Positions 116 through 4,260 of a DNA stretch of 4,260 bases are shown one piece after another. This stretch comes from a virus. Lineage: Duplodnaviria > Heunggongvirae > Uroviricota > Caudoviricetes. The position numbers were made by a program, and so were the translations under genes. The notes beneath the pieces are model-generated. The model was given only the letters and a program-made list of their open reading frames with translations, made no database searches and was not told the origin of the DNA. Position 1 is the first letter of the stretch; the number at the start of each line of letters is the position of its first letter. The stretch lies in the IMG/VR virus record IMGVR_UViG_2563366941_000004. One strand, given 5' to 3'.

Positions 116-331
116 TTACTCTCCCCGTGCAGCCTTACGACGGTCCTCTCTGATTTTGAAATACAGGTTAGTCAGATATGTCAGCAGCCCAAACAGCAGA
201 CTCCCCAGCACGCCTATTGCCGCCCACTGAGACGGGGAAACCCTGTCCAGCAACTGCAGGAACCAGTAGCCCGATCCCACCGCTGACGTGGTGTATGACA
301 CACCTGTTGTGATTTTTTCCATCTGGTACAT
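116..331 (-). CDS. S: Class II pinholin, phage 21 S21-like / EssQ-like (71 aa, dual-start Met1/Met4)
   Basis: The ORF-track protein ends ...[51 protein letters not shown], which I recognise as very close to the S21 pinholin family. Likely start is ATG 331..329 (MYQMEK...) with GGAGA about 6 nt upstream; a second in-frame Met at 322..320 reproduces the S21 71/68 dual-start layout. Stop TAA at 118..116. The 97-aa version starting at 409 is an over-extension. Confidence 0.85.
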
Positions 332-366
332 ACCCCGTCTCCCGTTATCCGGAAGCTGACAACAAT

Positions 367-397
367 AAAAAAAGCCACCAGTTAAGTACTGATGGCT
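367..397 (-). terminator. Putative rho-independent terminator between nanS-p and the pinholin gene
   Basis: Minus-strand RNA would form GCCAUCAG / CUGGUGGC (8 bp including one G.U) with a 7-nt loop, followed by UUUUUUU (plus-strand A-run 367-373). Judged by eye, no folding energy computed. Confidence 0.5.
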
Positions 398-481
398 CTG
401 ATAACTCATGCAGGCATCTCAGACGACCCACTGACACTACCGGTGAGTTTAACGATACCTTCCATTTGGCTGGCTCACTTT

Positions 482-2335
482 TTATGATGATGCCGGTGCA
501 TTTATCTCCAGCACCAGACTTTCTATCTCAACGCCATACGCTGCATTTTTGGTAATATCCGTCAGCGTCAGCGCATTCAGCCCCAGTGTCAGACTGTCTT
601 TTATGACCTGGAATGCCGGGCCAGCCACTCCATTCAGTTTCGGAGTAACCGTGGCACTGCCGGCGGTGAACACCAGCTCCAGCGTCTGCCAGTCGTTACT
701 GTAATTCCCGAACTCGCCCAACTTTGTGTTTCCTGCTTTCTTGTGATGCATCAGATTCAGTTTGCCGTCTGTGGTCTGGGTGAAGAACGACATCAGGAAC
801 GGGTTACCAGTCCCGGTCATCGCCACGACGTCAGGTAACGCTACATCGGTATACAGATAAATTCCCAGACCGAACTGATTGTTGGTCAGTGCGCCTGACA
901 GTCGAAACTTACAGCTCAGTCTGCCACCCCGTGTCAGCAGGGAGACTGCGTCATCCACCGGGCGCGTCAGGGACCAGGCTTTATTGCTCTGCTTGGTGAT
1001 CTTAAATACACCATCTGACAACTGAATTCCGCCATTCTTAATGCTCCAGCCCTGCGCAGCAGCGTCTCCGGCTGTCGGCAACAGGGAGATTGTGCGTATG
1101 GATGCATCTTCAGACGGCCCCGATGGCGTGTCGCCGCCGGGCGAGAGTTTGATTTCCGGTGCCTTACCACTAATGAAGGCTAAGGTGCGACCGGCTACGT
1201 TCAGAATAGCAGTTGCCATACGATCGGGAATAATGCCACGACGCGCCCATGAGCTGAAATGCGTCGGGCGATTTGATGATACCCAGTTTTTGTTCGTTCG
1301 GGATGCCGAACCGTAATAACCAGACCCGACAATATCAGGATCTTCTGACGGGTTGTTTGTCGGTGTATTAACTCCGCTACCATCGGTCATAAAGGGAACA
1401 AAATAAATCTGCTGGGATTCTTTACCTTTATATGCACCATATACCACTTCATATTGCGTACCGTGTTCTTGTTTCCACGCGTATGTCGTGTCGCCACAAA
1501 TCCAGGGGACTGATGCCGGACTTCCACCGTGACACTGCGCTGCCAGCCCGGCAAGGTCAGCACGGAACTGCTGTACCATTGCAAGAAATGCTGCTGGCTG
1601 CTGGGCGTAACTGGCATTCGTCATATCGAATTCCCCCTGCATCCAGCATATCGCCAGCAAAACGTTTTTCGGGTTTTTCTGCAATGCTGCCTTCGTGCGG
1701 AAAAGCAGATCCTGATATAACGGCTTACCCACTCCCCAGCGAGCCGAATCCTGACTGGCTCCCGTGGACTCGCTGAATGTCCCCTCCGTGCCCTGGGTGA
1801 ATGCCGAACCACCACGACAGCATGGTACCAGCAGGATCCCCGCATTATTAGGGATATACGGAAGCAGTTTTTTGGCAATATGTAAGCCCTGTCCGACACA
1901 GCCGTACTGCCCTTTGCTCAGGTCAGCCCGGGGATGGTTAATCGTACTCATATCCTGAACATCATGCAGACAATGGTCAGCAGGAATGATGTCGTTAAAT
2001 ACGCATACTTCACCACCGGGAGTCACTGTGTTACGACGGGCCAGTTGCTTAATGCGCGGATGGGGCGCATCGTATGAATCCGGAAGCGGAAGCCCTTCAC
2101 CGTAAGCCATGGCATTGGATTGCCCGGCCAGTACGATGACGTAGTACCACTCCGGCTCAGTTGCACCACTGACGACCACATCACCTTCTGCTGCAATCGC
2201 CTGCATCAGGGTATAAGGGGTTATGGCCACCGGACTACCAAACGGCTGCCAGCCCTCCTTCAGTTTTTGTGTCAGTCGTTTCGCAAGGTCTGACGGCGAT
2301 GCCGCCCTGACCACGTCATAGTGTTTAAATGCCAT
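482..2335 (-). CDS. nanS-p: Prophage NanS-p family 9-O-acetyl-sialate esterase (N-terminal DUF1737-like extension + SASA/SGNH esterase core + ~230-aa C-terminal domain)
   Basis: 617-aa ORF, ATG 2335..2333 with GGGAGG SD upstream, stop TAA at 484..482. Contains VLAGQSNAMAYGEG (GQSN motif, putative catalytic Ser73) and collinear blocks I recall from E. coli NanS/YjhS (LPLPD..APHPRIKQLAR, VPCCRGGSAFT, CWMQGEFD, GDTT, FSSWARRGIIPDR). Position between tRNAs and holin matches the nanS-p locus of Stx and related prophages. Confidence 0.85.
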   Translation of the reverse strand: MAFKHYDVVRAASPSDLAKRLTQKLKEGWQPFGSPVAITPYTLMQAIAAEGDVVVSGATEPEWYYVIVLAGQSNAMAYGEGLPLPDSYDAPHPRIKQLARRNTVTPGGEVCVFNDIIPADHCLHDVQDMSTINHPRADLSKGQYGCVGQGLHIAKKLLPYIPNNAGILLVPCCRGGSAFTQGTEGTFSESTGASQDSARWGVGKPLYQDLLFRTKAALQKNPKNVLLAICWMQGEFDMTNASYAQQPAAFLAMVQQFRADLAGLAAQCHGGSPASVPWICGDTTYAWKQEHGTQYEVVYGAYKGKESQQIYFVPFMTDGSGVNTPTNNPSEDPDIVGSGYYGSASRTNKNWVSSNRPTHFSSWARRGIIPDRMATAILNVAGRTLAFISGKAPEIKLSPGGDTPSGPSEDASIRTISLLPTAGDAAAQGWSIKNGGIQLSDGVFKITKQSNKAWSLTRPVDDAVSLLTRGGRLSCKFRLSGALTNNQFGLGIYLYTDVALPDVVAMTGTGNPFLMSFFTQTTDGKLNLMHHKKAGNTKLGEFGNYSNDWQTLELVFTAGSATVTPKLNGVAGPAFQVIKDSLTLGLNALTLTDITKNAAYGVEIESLVLEINAPASS

Positions 2336-2528
2336 GAATCCTCCCGGGCGGGATAATGTTGTGAGTCAGATAAGGAGCAGGCTGAAGTCCGGAAGTTACA
2401 GGACAATGGCAGAAGGGAGACTACAGCCCGCAATTCGAAAAAGACCGCGCAGTTGCGCAGAGTGATTACTATGGGGTATTATTCGCCAGCTGAAATATTA
2501 CTTCACGTTTTATTGTTTATTCCTTGCC

Positions 2529-2557
2529 GCCCGCGTCTCCCAGCGCGGGCTTTTTTT
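2529..2557 (+). terminator. Putative rho-independent terminator on the plus strand, divergent from nanS-p
   Basis: GCCCGCGU (2529-2536) pairs with GCGCGGGC (2543-2550), an 8-bp GC-rich stem with a 6-nt loop, followed by TTTTTTT (2551-2557). On the minus strand the same hairpin is not followed by a U-run. Confidence 0.5.
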
Positions 2558-2561
2558 GTCC

Positions 2562-2588
2562 ATAAGAAAGCCCCTCCGGAGAGGGGCT
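2562..2588 (-). terminator. Putative rho-independent terminator at the minus-strand end of repeat copy A
   Basis: Perfect inverted repeat AGCCCCTC / GAGGGGCT (2569-2576 / 2581-2588) with a 4-nt loop; on the minus strand it is followed by UUUCUUAU. Confidence 0.5.
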
Positions 2589-2797
2589 AAAGCCGCGTAT
2601 CTGTATCATCATGCACATGGTGCCGGGTGCCTCCCGGTGAGTTCAGCCCGGTGCCACTAAACCCGCGTCATTCTCGTTTTGATAATCAGAGATTATACCG
2701 TCACCAGTCGCCCCTCCGCTCAGGGGGATTCACCATGCGAAATTTTTTTAACAAATGCCCAGTCTGACAGGCAACTGTCAACTTACTGAATTGTGAG
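2568..2797. repeat. Structured repeat unit, copy A (diverged direct repeat of 3055-3265)
   Basis: Shares perfectly conserved blocks with copy B: aagcccctccggagaggggct (2568-2588), catggtgccgggtgcctcccggtga (2616-2640), gcccctccgcNcagggggattcaccatgc (2710-2738, one mismatch), tttaacaaa (2747-2755), ctgaattgtgag (2786-2797). Sequence between blocks is diverged with indels. Confidence 0.8.
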
Positions 2798-2833
2798 CAA
2801 CATAGCATTTAACGGGGAACCTGTTTTCTGCAG

Positions 2834-2861
2834 TAAAAAGGCCCACCGGAGCGGATGGGCC
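2834..2861 (-). terminator. Putative rho-independent terminator just upstream (minus-strand sense) of repeat copy A
   Basis: GGCCCA (2840-2845) pairs with TGGGCC (2856-2861) around a 10-nt loop; on the minus strand it is followed by UUUUU (plus A-run 2835-2839). Confidence 0.45.
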
Positions 2862-3048
2862 TGGAAGGATAGCGGTCATGTGATGCCGGTTTCCCGGTAA
2901 CTCAGCACCGGTATCTGAGTCAACGTTTTCTCTACTGGGTCATTTCCGATACGCCCTGCCTGCTGACAGGCTTTCATCACATCTGAAAATATAGCACCCT
3001 GACTGATACTGTAGTACCTAAGGTTCCAGAAACTGTGATGTATCCGGC

Positions 3049-3075
3049 ACAGAAAAGCCCCTCCGGAGAGGGGCT
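3049..3075 (-). terminator. Putative rho-independent terminator at the minus-strand end of repeat copy B
   Basis: Same AGCCCCTC-CGGA-GAGGGGCT hairpin (3056-3075); on the minus strand it is followed by UUUUCUGUG. Confidence 0.5.
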
Positions 3076-3265
3076 GGAGAGTGGCGCTATGTGCCATTGC
3101 ATGGTGCCGGGTGCCTCCCGGTGAATTCAGTACCAGCACCTGAATCCGCGATTATCCCATATACCTACTCGCTGATTGCCCCTCCGCACAGGGGGATTCA
3201 CCATGCCAGTTTCTTTTAACAAACTCCCCGCAAACCAGACAACAGTCAACCGCCTGAATTGTGAG
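3055..3265. repeat. Structured repeat unit, copy B (diverged direct repeat of 2568-2797)
   Basis: Conserved blocks at 3055-3075, 3100-3124, 3178-3206, 3214-3222 and 3254-3265 match copy A in the same order and orientation. Confidence 0.8.
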
Positions 3266-3271
3266 ACATTT

Positions 3272-3295
3272 AAAAAAAAGCCCGCAAAAGCGAGC
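3272..3295 (-). terminator. Putative rho-independent terminator immediately downstream of the tRNA cluster
   Basis: Minus-strand RNA: GCUCGC-UUUU-GCGGGC (6-bp stem with one U.G) followed by eight U (plus A-run 3272-3279). Starts 16 nt after the 3' end of tRNA-Arg(UCU). Confidence 0.6.
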
Positions 3296-3310
3296 CAGGG
3301 AAAATAAGTG

Positions 3311-3387
3311 TGGCACGTTGTACTGGATTCGAACCAGTGACCGATTGCTTAGAAGGCAATTGCTCTGTCCGGCTGAGCTAACAACGC
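3311..3387 (-). tRNA. tRNA-Arg (anticodon UCU), 77 nt, CCA encoded
   Basis: Manual cloverleaf on the minus strand: acceptor GCGTTGT/ACAACGT (G1.U72), D-arm GCTC-AGCCGGACA-GAGC, anticodon arm ATTGC-CTTCTAA-GCAAT (UCU), T-arm ACTGG-TTCGAAT-CCAGT, discriminator G, CCA. Third position in a trio that resembles the ileZ-argN-argO cluster of phage 933W (recalled). Confidence 0.8.
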
Positions 3388-3400
3388 AGGATACAGATAA

Positions 3401-3477
3401 TGGACCGCCTTCGGGGACCCGAACTCCGCGCAACCAGCTTCGAAGGCTGGCGCTCTTTCCTGATGAGCTAATGGCGG
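3401..3477 (-). tRNA. tRNA-Arg (anticodon UCG as read), 77 nt, CCA encoded; non-canonical features, possibly degenerate
   Basis: Manual fold: D-arm GCTC-ATCAGGAAA-GAGC, anticodon arm CCAGC-CTTCGAA-GCTGG (perfect 5-bp stem, U33, anticodon UCG, A37), T-arm CGGAG-TTCGGGT-CCCCG. Deviations: C1-G72 start, A.A mismatch at 6:67, A.C mismatch at 52:62, G at position 58 where A is near-invariant. Confidence 0.6.
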
Positions 3478-3484
3478 TATGTGA

Positions 3485-3560
3485 TGGTGGCCCTTGCTGG
3501 ATTTGAACCAGCGACCTGGCGATTATGAGTCGCTCGCTCTCACCACTGAGCTAAAGGGCC
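3485..3560 (-). tRNA. tRNA-Ile2 (anticodon CAU, lysidine-type, AUA-decoding; ileX/ileZ-like), 76 nt, CCA encoded
   Basis: Minus strand GGCCCTTTAGCTCAGTGGTGAGAGCGAGCGACTCATAATCGCCAGGTCGCTGGTTCAAATCCAGCAAGGGCCACCA. Perfect 7-bp acceptor stem, anticodon loop CTCATAA, T-loop TTCAAAT. Very close to the E. coli ileX sequence as I recall it, so Ile2 rather than Met is favoured, but the anticodon alone cannot distinguish them. Confidence 0.8.
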
Positions 3561-3569
3561 GGGAGCAGA

Positions 3570-3598
3570 ATAATAATGGTGCGTAATTAATTCTGCAA
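3570..3598 (-). promoter_or_regulatory. Putative sigma70 promoter for the tRNA cluster
   Basis: Minus strand: TTGCAG (3598..3593), 17-nt spacer, TATTAT (3575..3570), then 9 nt to the tRNA-Ile2 5' end at 3560. Motif match by eye only. Confidence 0.4.
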
Positions 3599-3609
3599 TC
3601 TCATCCGTT

Positions 3610-3936
3610 TCAAACGATTAAATCCTGAACTTCCCTGACTGTCTGCTCAAAACGTCCGGTCTCCAGTTCAACGCCAATCGCACGACGCCCGAGCGCCAGT
3701 GCCGCTTTTACCGTTGAACCTGAGCCCATAAAAAAATCTGCAACCAGGTCTCCCGGACGACTGCTTGCGCTGATTATCTGCTGCAGCATTTCTGCCGGTT
3801 TTTCGCACGGATGTTTCCCGGGATAGAACTGCACCGGTTTATGCGTCCAGACATCGGTATACGGCACCTGCGCTGTCACGCCAAAATACCGCCGCAGTCG
3901 GCATTCACAACCACAAGCGTGTTTAACGTACTGCAC
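3610..3936 (-). pseudogene. 5'-truncated beta-class DNA (N6-adenine/N4-cytosine) methyltransferase, C-terminal ~108 codons only
   Basis: Translation carries the C-terminal signature ...KHPCEKPAEMLQQIISASSRPGDLVADFFMGSGSTVKAALALGRRAIGVELE (HP-x-x-KP and FxGSGST AdoMet motif I). No DPPY motif or N-terminal half. The frame is closed by an in-frame TGA at 3945..3943 two codons upstream of the only start, a GTG with no Shine-Dalgarno. Upstream 3946-4039 is AT-rich and not MTase-like. Confidence 0.65.
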
Positions 3937-4039
3937 AGCTTTTCAGACATAAAAAGGCCGCCTGATAGCAGCCTTTTCACATTAAAATTAAGTTTTTCTT
4001 TACTCTGTAGTATGGGAAATTAGCATTCCCTACTGGGTT

Positions 4040-4260
4040 GGTAATGACTCCAACTTATTGATAGTGTTTTATGTTCAGATAATGCCCGATGACTTTGTCA
4101 TGCAGCTCCACCGATTTTGAGAACGACAGCGACTTCCGTCCCAGCCGTGCCAGGTGCTGCCTCAGATTCAGGTTATGCCGCTCAATTCGCTGCGTATATC
4201 GCTTGCTGATTACGTGCAGCTTTCCCTTCAGGCGGGATTCATACAGCGGCCAGCCATCCG
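4040..4260 (-). mobile_element. IS1 insertion sequence, partial (right-end 221 bp; element continues beyond window end)
   Basis: 4040 onward reads GGTAATGACTCCAACTTATTGATAGTGTTTTATGTTCAGATAATGCCCGATGACTTTGTCATGCAGCTCC..., which is the reverse complement of the IS1 right end (terminal inverted repeat plus insB 3' end) as I recall it, continuing to the window edge. Confidence 0.9.
4055..4260 (-). CDS. insB: IS1 transposase InsB, C-terminal part (partial, 5' end outside window)
   Basis: Minus-strand frame ends ...[58 protein letters not shown] with stop TAA at 4057..4055, 16 nt inside the IS1 terminus, matching the InsB C-terminus. Confidence 0.8.

Follow-up and report, generated by a model that had tools for sequence, protein, structure and literature searches.

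The argN-type tRNA-Arg(UCG) of a partly defective E. coli prophage is probably a destabilised allele

The middle tRNA gene in a stretch of Caudoviricetes DNA of 4,260 nucleotides (IMG/VR record IMGVR_UViG_2563366941_000004, hereafter the window) is argN, an already known and annotated gene that belongs to the ileZ-argN-argO trio carried by lambdoid and Stx prophages. Our analysis indicated that the copy in the window is probably a destabilised and poorly functional allele heading to a pseudogene in a prophage that is itself partly defective; that its function is reduced is what we infer. The only new element here is the diagnosis at the level of the allele, which separates the traits of the argN family from lesions that came later. 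In the course of events that we propose, the window allele would have gained three changes, A58G, G52A and U67A, after its split from a 933W-type sequence, of which A58G would break the T54-A58 tertiary pair, G52A creates an A.C mismatch in the T stem and U67A creates an A.A mismatch in the acceptor stem. The neighbouring ileZ and argO genes are intact at the same locus. The features of the window that bear on this finding are listed below.

3401..3477, minus strand: argN-type tRNA-Arg(UCG) of 77 nt with an encoded CCA, from ARAGORN, Rfam, the manual cloverleaf, the identity to 933W and the RefSeq annotation
Positions within this tRNA, minus strand: A6 at 3472, A67 at 3410, A52 at 3425, C62 at 3415, G58 at 3419 and the anticodon at 3443-3441
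3485..3560, minus strand: ileZ-type tRNA with anticodon CAU, first of the trio (ARAGORN Met(cat); Rfam, 72.5 bits)
3311..3387, minus strand: argO-type tRNA-Arg(UCU), third of the trio, reading AGA/AGG (ARAGORN Arg(tct); Rfam, 67.7 bits)
3279..3296, minus strand: terminator-like GC hairpin with a T run, directly after argO (pattern scan)
3610..3936, minus strand: truncated N6/N4 DNA methyltransferase ORF, directly upstream of the trio (Pfam PF01555)
2558..3235, minus strand: three tandem copies of STnc100-family prophage sRNAs, between the tRNAs and nanS-p (Rfam RF02076)
482..2335, minus strand: nanS-p type sialate O-acetylesterase, a late gene downstream of the tRNAs (Pfam DUF1737, SASA and DUF6645; RefSeq 'SASA family carbohydrate esterase')
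116..409, minus strand: P21-type class II holin ORF, start of the lysis cassette (Pfam PF04971)

The 311-bp region of the trio matched 289 phage records, mostly of Stx2 or Stx2-converting phages, in which the three genes are annotated as ileZ, argN and argO, and the window argN was 90.9% identical over its 77 nt to the argN of phage 933W (AF125520). The name argN was reportedly given by Plunkett et al. in 1999 in the 933W genome and otherwise rests on GenBank annotations; a search by the gene names argN, argO and ileZ gave no match in the literature searched. The window argN lies in the late region, downstream of Q, and is flanked by a CAU tRNA, which RefSeq labels as a tRNA-Ile (lysidine type, reading AUA), and by a UCU tRNA-Arg; this trio arrangement was seen in 70 loci. 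The RefSeq order, all on one strand, is Q antiterminator, (Ser/Thr kinase and PP2C phosphatase), DNA methyltransferase, tRNA-Ile, tRNA-Arg, tRNA-Arg, sRNAs, SASA esterase (nanS-p), holin and lysozyme, and this neighbourhood is the start of a lambdoid prophage late operon. At the 933W locus the trio lies upstream of stx2, whereas at the window locus the STnc100 sRNAs and nanS-p stand in the place of stx2. The prophage that carries the trio appears to be defective. The PF01555 match of the methyltransferase ORF covers only positions 134-219 of the 221 in the profile, i.e., a C-terminal fragment, and the gene is annotated as a partial pseudogene in strain ML35 (RefSeq). The ML35 prophage, which adjoins ompW, is partly defective, as, besides the truncated methylase, its genes for the major capsid protein and the S49 protease have been truncated and fused (L141:11044-12521). 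The holin CDS is shorter in the RefSeq annotation (116-331) than in the ORF finder output (116-409).

Some further observations concern the elements downstream of argN. The window argO carries a C71U change (window position 3316) that produces a G2.U71 wobble, which few other copies have; this position is C in 16 of 17 relatives of the lineage, and the score is 67.7 vs 70.1 bits. The hairpin 3' of argO is kept in most related loci, including those upstream of stx2A in 933W-type phages, and is a possible terminator that would be read through by Q-modified polymerase. Two of the three STnc100 copies scored 136.3 bits (3045-3235) and 165.4 bits (2558-2767), and the one between them (2833-3006) scored 30.1 bits, which is below the gathering score; a terminator-like hairpin is found at the end of each copy. 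STnc100 is related to the PasD sRNAs, and an association with esterase genes has been pointed out (preprint 10.64898/2026.05.13.724894).

The structure of the window argN was assigned by three routes. ARAGORN predicted a tRNA-Arg(tcg) at exactly 3401-3477 on the minus strand, and Rfam RF00005 matched 3404-3477 with 43.4 bits (E = 4.3e-07 within the window), above the gathering score of 29 bits, in an alignment that marks exactly two pairs as non-standard, the first in the acceptor stem and the second in the T stem. In addition, the cloverleaf was written by hand from the reverse complement. It starts with the acceptor stem CCGCCAT/AAGGCGG, which contains the A6.A67 mismatch and is followed by U8 and A9. 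The D-arm is GCTC-ATCAGGAAA-GAGC (in RNA form, GCUC-AUCAGGAAA-GAGC) and holds G18G19 and A20, the latter positioned after G18G19 in the D loop ATCAGGAAA; G26 comes next. The anticodon arm CCAGC-CUUCGAA-GCUGG has five Watson-Crick pairs, U33, the UCG triplet and A37, and is followed by the variable loop TTGCG (UUGCG) and by the T-arm CGGAG-TTCGGGT-CCCCG with the A52.C62 mismatch and G58. The molecule closes with C1-G72, U73 and then the encoded CCA. The four stems of 7, 4, 5 and 5 bp are therefore not all paired, as the acceptor and T stems are mismatched and the D and anticodon stems are perfect. The tertiary nucleotides U8, A14, G18G19, A21, U33, R37, G53-C61 and T54-T55-C56 are present, and only A58 is replaced, by G. 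Across the loci fetched here, tRNAs of other families amounted to 123 distinct sequences, of which 121 have A58, the two exceptions being mis-registered ARAGORN predictions.

These results bear out what a sequence-only reading of this DNA had described, in that the A6.A67 and A52.C62 mismatches, G58, C1-G72 and the features of the anticodon arm were all recovered by ARAGORN, Rfam and the manual cloverleaf. The assignment as Arg(UCG), decoding CGA and CGG, also stood, since the same anticodon was obtained by each of the three, and the ARAGORN run that the reading had proposed returned no different fold or anticodon. With all three concordant, an alternative fold or anticodon for this gene was rejected. 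Rfam 'Plastid-ycf2' matches antisense to the tRNAs were low-scoring, below the threshold of that family, and were disregarded. The identical 77 nt occur in 232 complete E. coli chromosomal records, where they are annotated as tRNA-Arg in RefSeq and have no indels; an assembly error is thus excluded. Strains ATCC 11775 and ML35 are among the carriers of this exact allele. A conserved syntenic homologue was present in 2009 of 5426 E. coli genomes.

Two alignments were used to tell family traits from later changes. The first comprised 20 middle-position sequences from E. coli genomes and phages, and the second 41 distinct alleles drawn from 133 viral contigs, for which the invariant 3' end of ileZ served as the anchor. 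C1-G72 was present in 40 of the 41 alleles (the exception, L022, is heavily decayed), and U73 was invariant in the 41 alleles and is also found in all Arg and Lys members. Furthermore, C1-G72 is kept in the Lys(UUU) version and in the relatives found in other genera, which have either U or A at position 73. Because they are kept across the family and across genera, C1-G72 and U73 are family traits and not defects. The remaining three deviations have a different distribution. The majority state in both alignments is A6-U67, G52-C62 and A58, 933W included, and U67, G52 and A58 are likewise found in the outgroups (the Lys(UUU) version and the cross-genus relatives), so that A67, A52 and G58 of the window arose in one sub-lineage. 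No compensating change was found for any of the three. Intermediates with G58 alone, with A52 alone (phage Nil3) and with A52 plus G58 (L003) were found, as were further-damaged descendants of the window allele carrying G10U, G50A or a CCA to UCA change. The closest phage to the window allele had 92.2% identity among 50,697 phage records, a collection biased to Stx2 phages, and the absence of the allele from sequenced phages is weak evidence.

The sequence-only reading had counted C1-G72 among the non-canonical positions and had allowed that the deviations might be typical of a functional family. The C1-G72 pair is indeed present, but as a trait shared with U73 throughout the family and kept across genera it is no defect, and it is the one deviation that is typical in this sense; A67, A52 and G58 are not, as the outgroups lack them. 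The alignment to 933W that had been suggested, at 90.9% identity, likewise showed that none of these three is in 933W. The 933W argN resembles that of the window in its place between ileZ and argO in the late region, its 77 nt, the UCG anticodon, C1-G72, U73, the encoded CCA and the D-arm with A20. It differs in having A6-U67, G52-C62, A58 and a G51.U63 wobble and scores 54.8 bits, in contrast to the A.A and A.C mismatches, G58 and 43.4 bits of the window allele. The anticodon was UCG in all sampled Arg-type bodies but one. The exception, viral contig L048, has an argN-type body with UCU by way of a single G36U change, and UCU is also found in L148 (Serratia proteamaculans); going by the L048 sequence, the anticodon of the argN scaffold can apparently switch. 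Covariation was seen as four pairs altered on both sides. These mostly divide the Arg clade from the Lys clade and therefore stand for few independent events, which support only a real tRNA lineage.

The cost of the three changes was apparent both in score and in predicted stability. The window allele and its close kin scored 42.9-45.5 Rfam tRNA bits, compared with 54.8 bits for 933W and 54.8-59.0 bits for intact alleles, which places the window allele 11-16 bits below intact argN alleles. When the cloverleaf was imposed, the energy was -20.0 kcal/mol for the window allele vs -28.3 to -31.3 kcal/mol for intact alleles, i.e., 8-11 kcal/mol weaker. The cloverleaf of the window allele lies 7 kcal/mol above its own minimum-energy fold, vs 1.5 kcal/mol in three of the four other argN alleles compared. 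The minimum-energy fold of the window argN is not a cloverleaf (z = -0.45), and the same is true of the intact ileZ and argO; since these intact genes fail as well, minimum-energy folding was dropped as a criterion and the imposed-cloverleaf energy was used. A side effect of G58 and A67 is that together they create a 5-bp hairpin at window 3410-3424 (minus strand; tRNA positions 54-67), in which U54-G58 pairs with C63-A67. This hairpin rivals the T arm in the predicted minimum-energy fold and may be a coincidence, and as an alternative in a minimum-energy prediction it carries little weight.

The middle position of the array is less constrained than the positions at its two sides. Nucleotide diversity over 52 distinct trio haplotypes was 0.006 for ileZ, 0.016 for argO and 0.069 for argN, compared with 0.13-0.21 for the spacers and 3' flank, and argN is constrained as a gene, but far less so than ileZ and argO. 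At 133 ileZ-anchored loci, an Arg(UCG) tRNA was callable at the middle position in 76, of which 39 were structurally clean, and the Lys(UUU) version was present in 20. In about 37 loci, roughly a quarter, the middle position was not recognisable as a tRNA, being scrambled, deleted or fused. Twenty-four of these have a scrambled centre, with the anticodon arm replaced by unrelated sequence (e.g., L024 and L031), four have lost the anticodon loop through a 12-nt deletion, as in Stx2c-type phages (L019, L032, L085 and L093), and three are fusions of the 5' half of argN to the 3' half of argO that yield a single UCU tRNA (L039, L066 and L112). The argO gene was clean in 82 of 106 copies. Extra structural lesions were found in 12 of 14 G58 alleles (10 types) vs 7 of 22 A58 alleles (Fisher p = 0.002, with alleles that share ancestry), and this excess of lesions in G58 alleles is only indicative. 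Within the lineage of the window (17 loci), five polymorphic sites were found in argN, three in argO and two in the first 51 nt of ileZ, counts too small for relaxed constraint to show within this lineage. The order of constraint in the trio is ileZ > argO >> argN, and this suggests that readers of AUA and of AGA/AGG are what prophage and host retain, while a reader of CGA/CGG is dispensable.

Codon usage was compared between the ML35 prophage (10,792 codons) and a 49-kb region of its host (14,228 codons), and the codons of the trio all proved enriched in the prophage. The prophage/host ratios were 1.7x for CGA (Fisher p = 0.004), 2.6x for CGG (p = 2e-11), 4.8x for AGA (p = 2e-13), 5.9x for AGG (p = 2e-13) and 2.0x for AUA (p = 7e-05). 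All three tRNAs of the trio thus match codons that are over-used in the prophage. Enrichment is strongest for AGA/AGG, the codons of argO, and weakest for CGA, which fits the order of conservation of the trio genes. The sequence-only reading had been puzzled that the anticodon points to CGA/CGG and not to the AGA/AGG codons associated with phage-borne tRNA-Arg; the puzzle is resolved since the neighbouring argO (UCU) covers AGA/AGG. The UCG anticodon would pair with CGA in Watson-Crick fashion and with CGG through wobble. The tRNA-Arg isoacceptors of the E. coli host are ACG/ICG, CCG, UCU and CCU, and E. coli is not known to have a UCG isoacceptor.

The identity elements of E. coli ArgRS are A20, C35 and G36/U36, with A/G73 as a minor element. 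A check of the window argN sequence found A20, C35 and G36 present and the minor element, a purine at position 73, missing, as the gene has U73. Like argN, the host tRNA-Arg species have the loop context C32 U33 N C G A37 A38 and a GGAxA-type D loop with A20, and the same charging enzyme is expected for both. Unlike them, argN has C1-G72, U73 and U15 in its body, is borne by a prophage and is weakly constrained. A consensus scan of the minus strand from 2400 to 4260 gave no sigma-70-like site that could serve as a promoter of argN itself, a weak negative, which makes transcription from the late promoter likely. In the pathway we envisage, argN genes would be co-transcribed with the late operon, and the tRNA would be cut out by host tRNA-processing enzymes with its CCA end already encoded. 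Charging by ArgRS would proceed via A20, C35 and G36, and the product would supply E. coli with a U34 isoacceptor for CGA and CGG.

The argN body has a wide distribution. A scan with the 5' 20-mer of argN (one genome per species) detected this tRNA body within prophages of many genera, among them Enterobacter, Citrobacter, Buttiauxella, Dryocola, Yokenella, Cedecea, Pluralibacter and Serratia, and also in Salmonella enterica subsp. arizonae and diarizonae and in Klebsiella oxytoca. A second scan, of viral contigs, yielded 92 more stretches with this body. The element is found in Met(CAU)-X-Thr(UGU)-Gly(UCC) arrays (L143-L284; e.g., L207:1571-1644, L145, L150 and L199), and in L207, the one locus checked, the array lies just upstream of holin and lysozyme genes. 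Among 41 distinct elements of 73-74 nt from 86 loci, the body is nearly invariant, including the 3' 45 nt that lie outside the search pattern, and three consecutive loop positions have an entropy of 1.0-1.8 bits. The loop types number 27, of which 18 have 6 nt (C-NNN-R-U) and nine have 5 nt (NNN-A-U or similar). The shortened-loop elements of the 18 loci searched gave no Rfam tRNA match at the gathering score, and their relatives in sequenced phages are unannotated or labelled 'tRNA-OTHER'. In addition, an 81-nt relic of the argN body with a disrupted anticodon arm (e.g., NZ_AP018784.2:3743720-3743800; L155, L161 and L195) overlaps the small annotated ORF yahM, a core-genome location, in 5169 of 5426 complete E. 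coli genomes; Shigella, E. albertii, E. ruysiae and E. whittamii have the relic as well.

The Lys(UUU) version, which occurs in Met(CAU)-Lys-Thr(UGU)-Gly(UCC) prophage arrays (e.g., PhiR47_1 and PPompW_132418), is about 80% identical to the window tRNA and has in common with argN the acceptor stem, D-arm, T-arm, U73, CCA and the place after the CAU tRNA. It differs in that the whole anticodon arm is exchanged with the pairing kept (C-G in argN vs U-A at 27:43, and G-C vs A-U at 30:40), and in that C33 replaces U33 in most copies, which also have A51.C63; pair 7:66 also co-varies between the two versions. Copies of this version were found in L010, L012, L013, L018, L020:417-493, L160 and L173, and in the L026 allele the loop is canonical, with U33, and the U4-A69 pair is compensated.

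Against this background, the choice that the sequence-only reading had left between a functional but divergent tRNA and a decaying copy comes out in favour of decay, on account of the uncompensated changes in one sub-lineage, the lower score and stability and the lesions on G58 backgrounds; the functional option is less favoured. A fully functional tRNA-Arg(UCG) that tolerates both mismatches and G58, possibly because the A.C wobble is protonated and the T loop is flexible, and that decodes CGA and CGG normally in late expression, is in our estimate unlikely. It accords with a score above the Rfam threshold (43.4 vs 29 bits), with detection by both finders and with the tRNA-Arg label of the copies in RefSeq, as well as with the perfect anticodon arm, the intact D-arm, G18G19, A20, U8, T54-C56, C35, G36 and CCA and the enrichment of CGA and CGG in the prophage. 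Both the Lys clade and relatives in several genera conserve A51.C63, and since the T stem tolerates this mismatch elsewhere in the family, A52.C62 alone may be harmless. However, the window allele has three independent sub-lineage changes, all at structurally important positions and none compensated, and every correctly registered tRNA examined from other families has A58. The deficits of 11-16 bits and 8-11 kcal/mol relative to intact alleles, the gathering of further lesions on G58 backgrounds and the absence of the allele from sequenced phages (in the Stx2-biased collection) point the same way. The identical sequence in 232 genomes without insertions or deletions would also speak for function, but the recent spread of a prophage can yield many identical copies and is no proof of selection. 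By contrast, a tRNA-like sequence that arose by chance, or an artefact of sequencing or assembly, is refuted by the same 232 records, by the Rfam E-value of 4.3e-07 and by the homologue conserved in synteny in 2009 of 5426 E. coli genomes; we assign it next to no credence, and only the low minimum-energy z-score of -0.45 could be cited for it.

It is also conceivable, though we hold it to be very improbable, that the window argN has been retained as a tRNA-shaped RNA for some purpose that is not decoding, either as a processing signal that punctuates the late transcript or as a decoy or replacement against a tRNA-cleaving nuclease of the host or of a rival prophage. This idea draws on the body, which is nearly invariant over many genera of enterobacteria with variation restricted to the anticodon triplet, often in a loop of 5-6 nt, and on the sister arrays, which carry Met(CAU), Thr(UGU) and Gly(UCC), anticodons that are listed as OLD targets. 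The P2 OLD nuclease reportedly cleaves the tRNAs fMet(CAU), Thr(UGU) and Gly(UCC), and OLD defence was inhibited by Thr(UGU) tRNAs of phages (bioRxiv 10.64898/2026.07.10.737580). Phage tRNAs with altered anticodon loops are reported to evade anticodon nucleases (eLife 2023;12:e85183), and T5 tRNA-Lys is proposed, in the case of PARIS, as a phage tRNA that replaces a nuclease-cut host tRNA or evades the cut (Nature 2024;634:424). By analogy, then, the Met(CAU)-X-Thr(UGU)-Gly(UCC) arrays may be anti-nuclease sets. The anti-nuclease phage tRNAs of these three reports share with the sister arrays a variable make-up of the anticodon loop but not with argN, whose loop is canonical, so that the link is by analogy only. 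For the window gene itself, the Arg(UCG) loop of 7 nt with U33 and A37 is that of a decoder, and the damage lies in the body and not in the anticodon arm, the opposite of what conservation of shape predicts. Moreover, no defence nuclease specific for tRNA-Arg was linked to the argN loci here, and the middle position is often deleted with no replacement seen. Decay of a once intact argN is the reading that we prefer.

For the window itself the finding matters little, since it concerns a named and routinely annotated prophage tRNA in a worn copy. Pipelines label the window allele as tRNA-Arg without flagging a defect, and therefore counts of prophage rare-codon tRNAs in E. coli may be too high. 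The wider scaffold family is a more interesting lead than the window argN. One reading of it, which we put forward as doubtful, is that argN is one anticodon version of a modular prophage tRNA scaffold whose triplet is variable. The acceptor, D and T arms, with C1-G72, U or A at position 73 and the encoded CCA, recur throughout Enterobacteriaceae at one and the same place in late-region tRNA arrays, and only three loop nucleotides vary; the versions comprise Arg UCG and Arg UCU, a Lys UUU form that has C33, and some 27 shortened-loop types. If the triplet is under diversifying selection, as in an arms race with OLD, PARIS or PrrC-like nucleases, the shortened-loop forms could be uncleavable decoys or replacements, and if the scaffold reading is true, the damaged window allele would be a retired version that is no longer needed in its host. 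The combination of a constant body with a hypervariable triplet offers a natural experiment on what phage tRNAs are for, codon supply or defence against nucleases.
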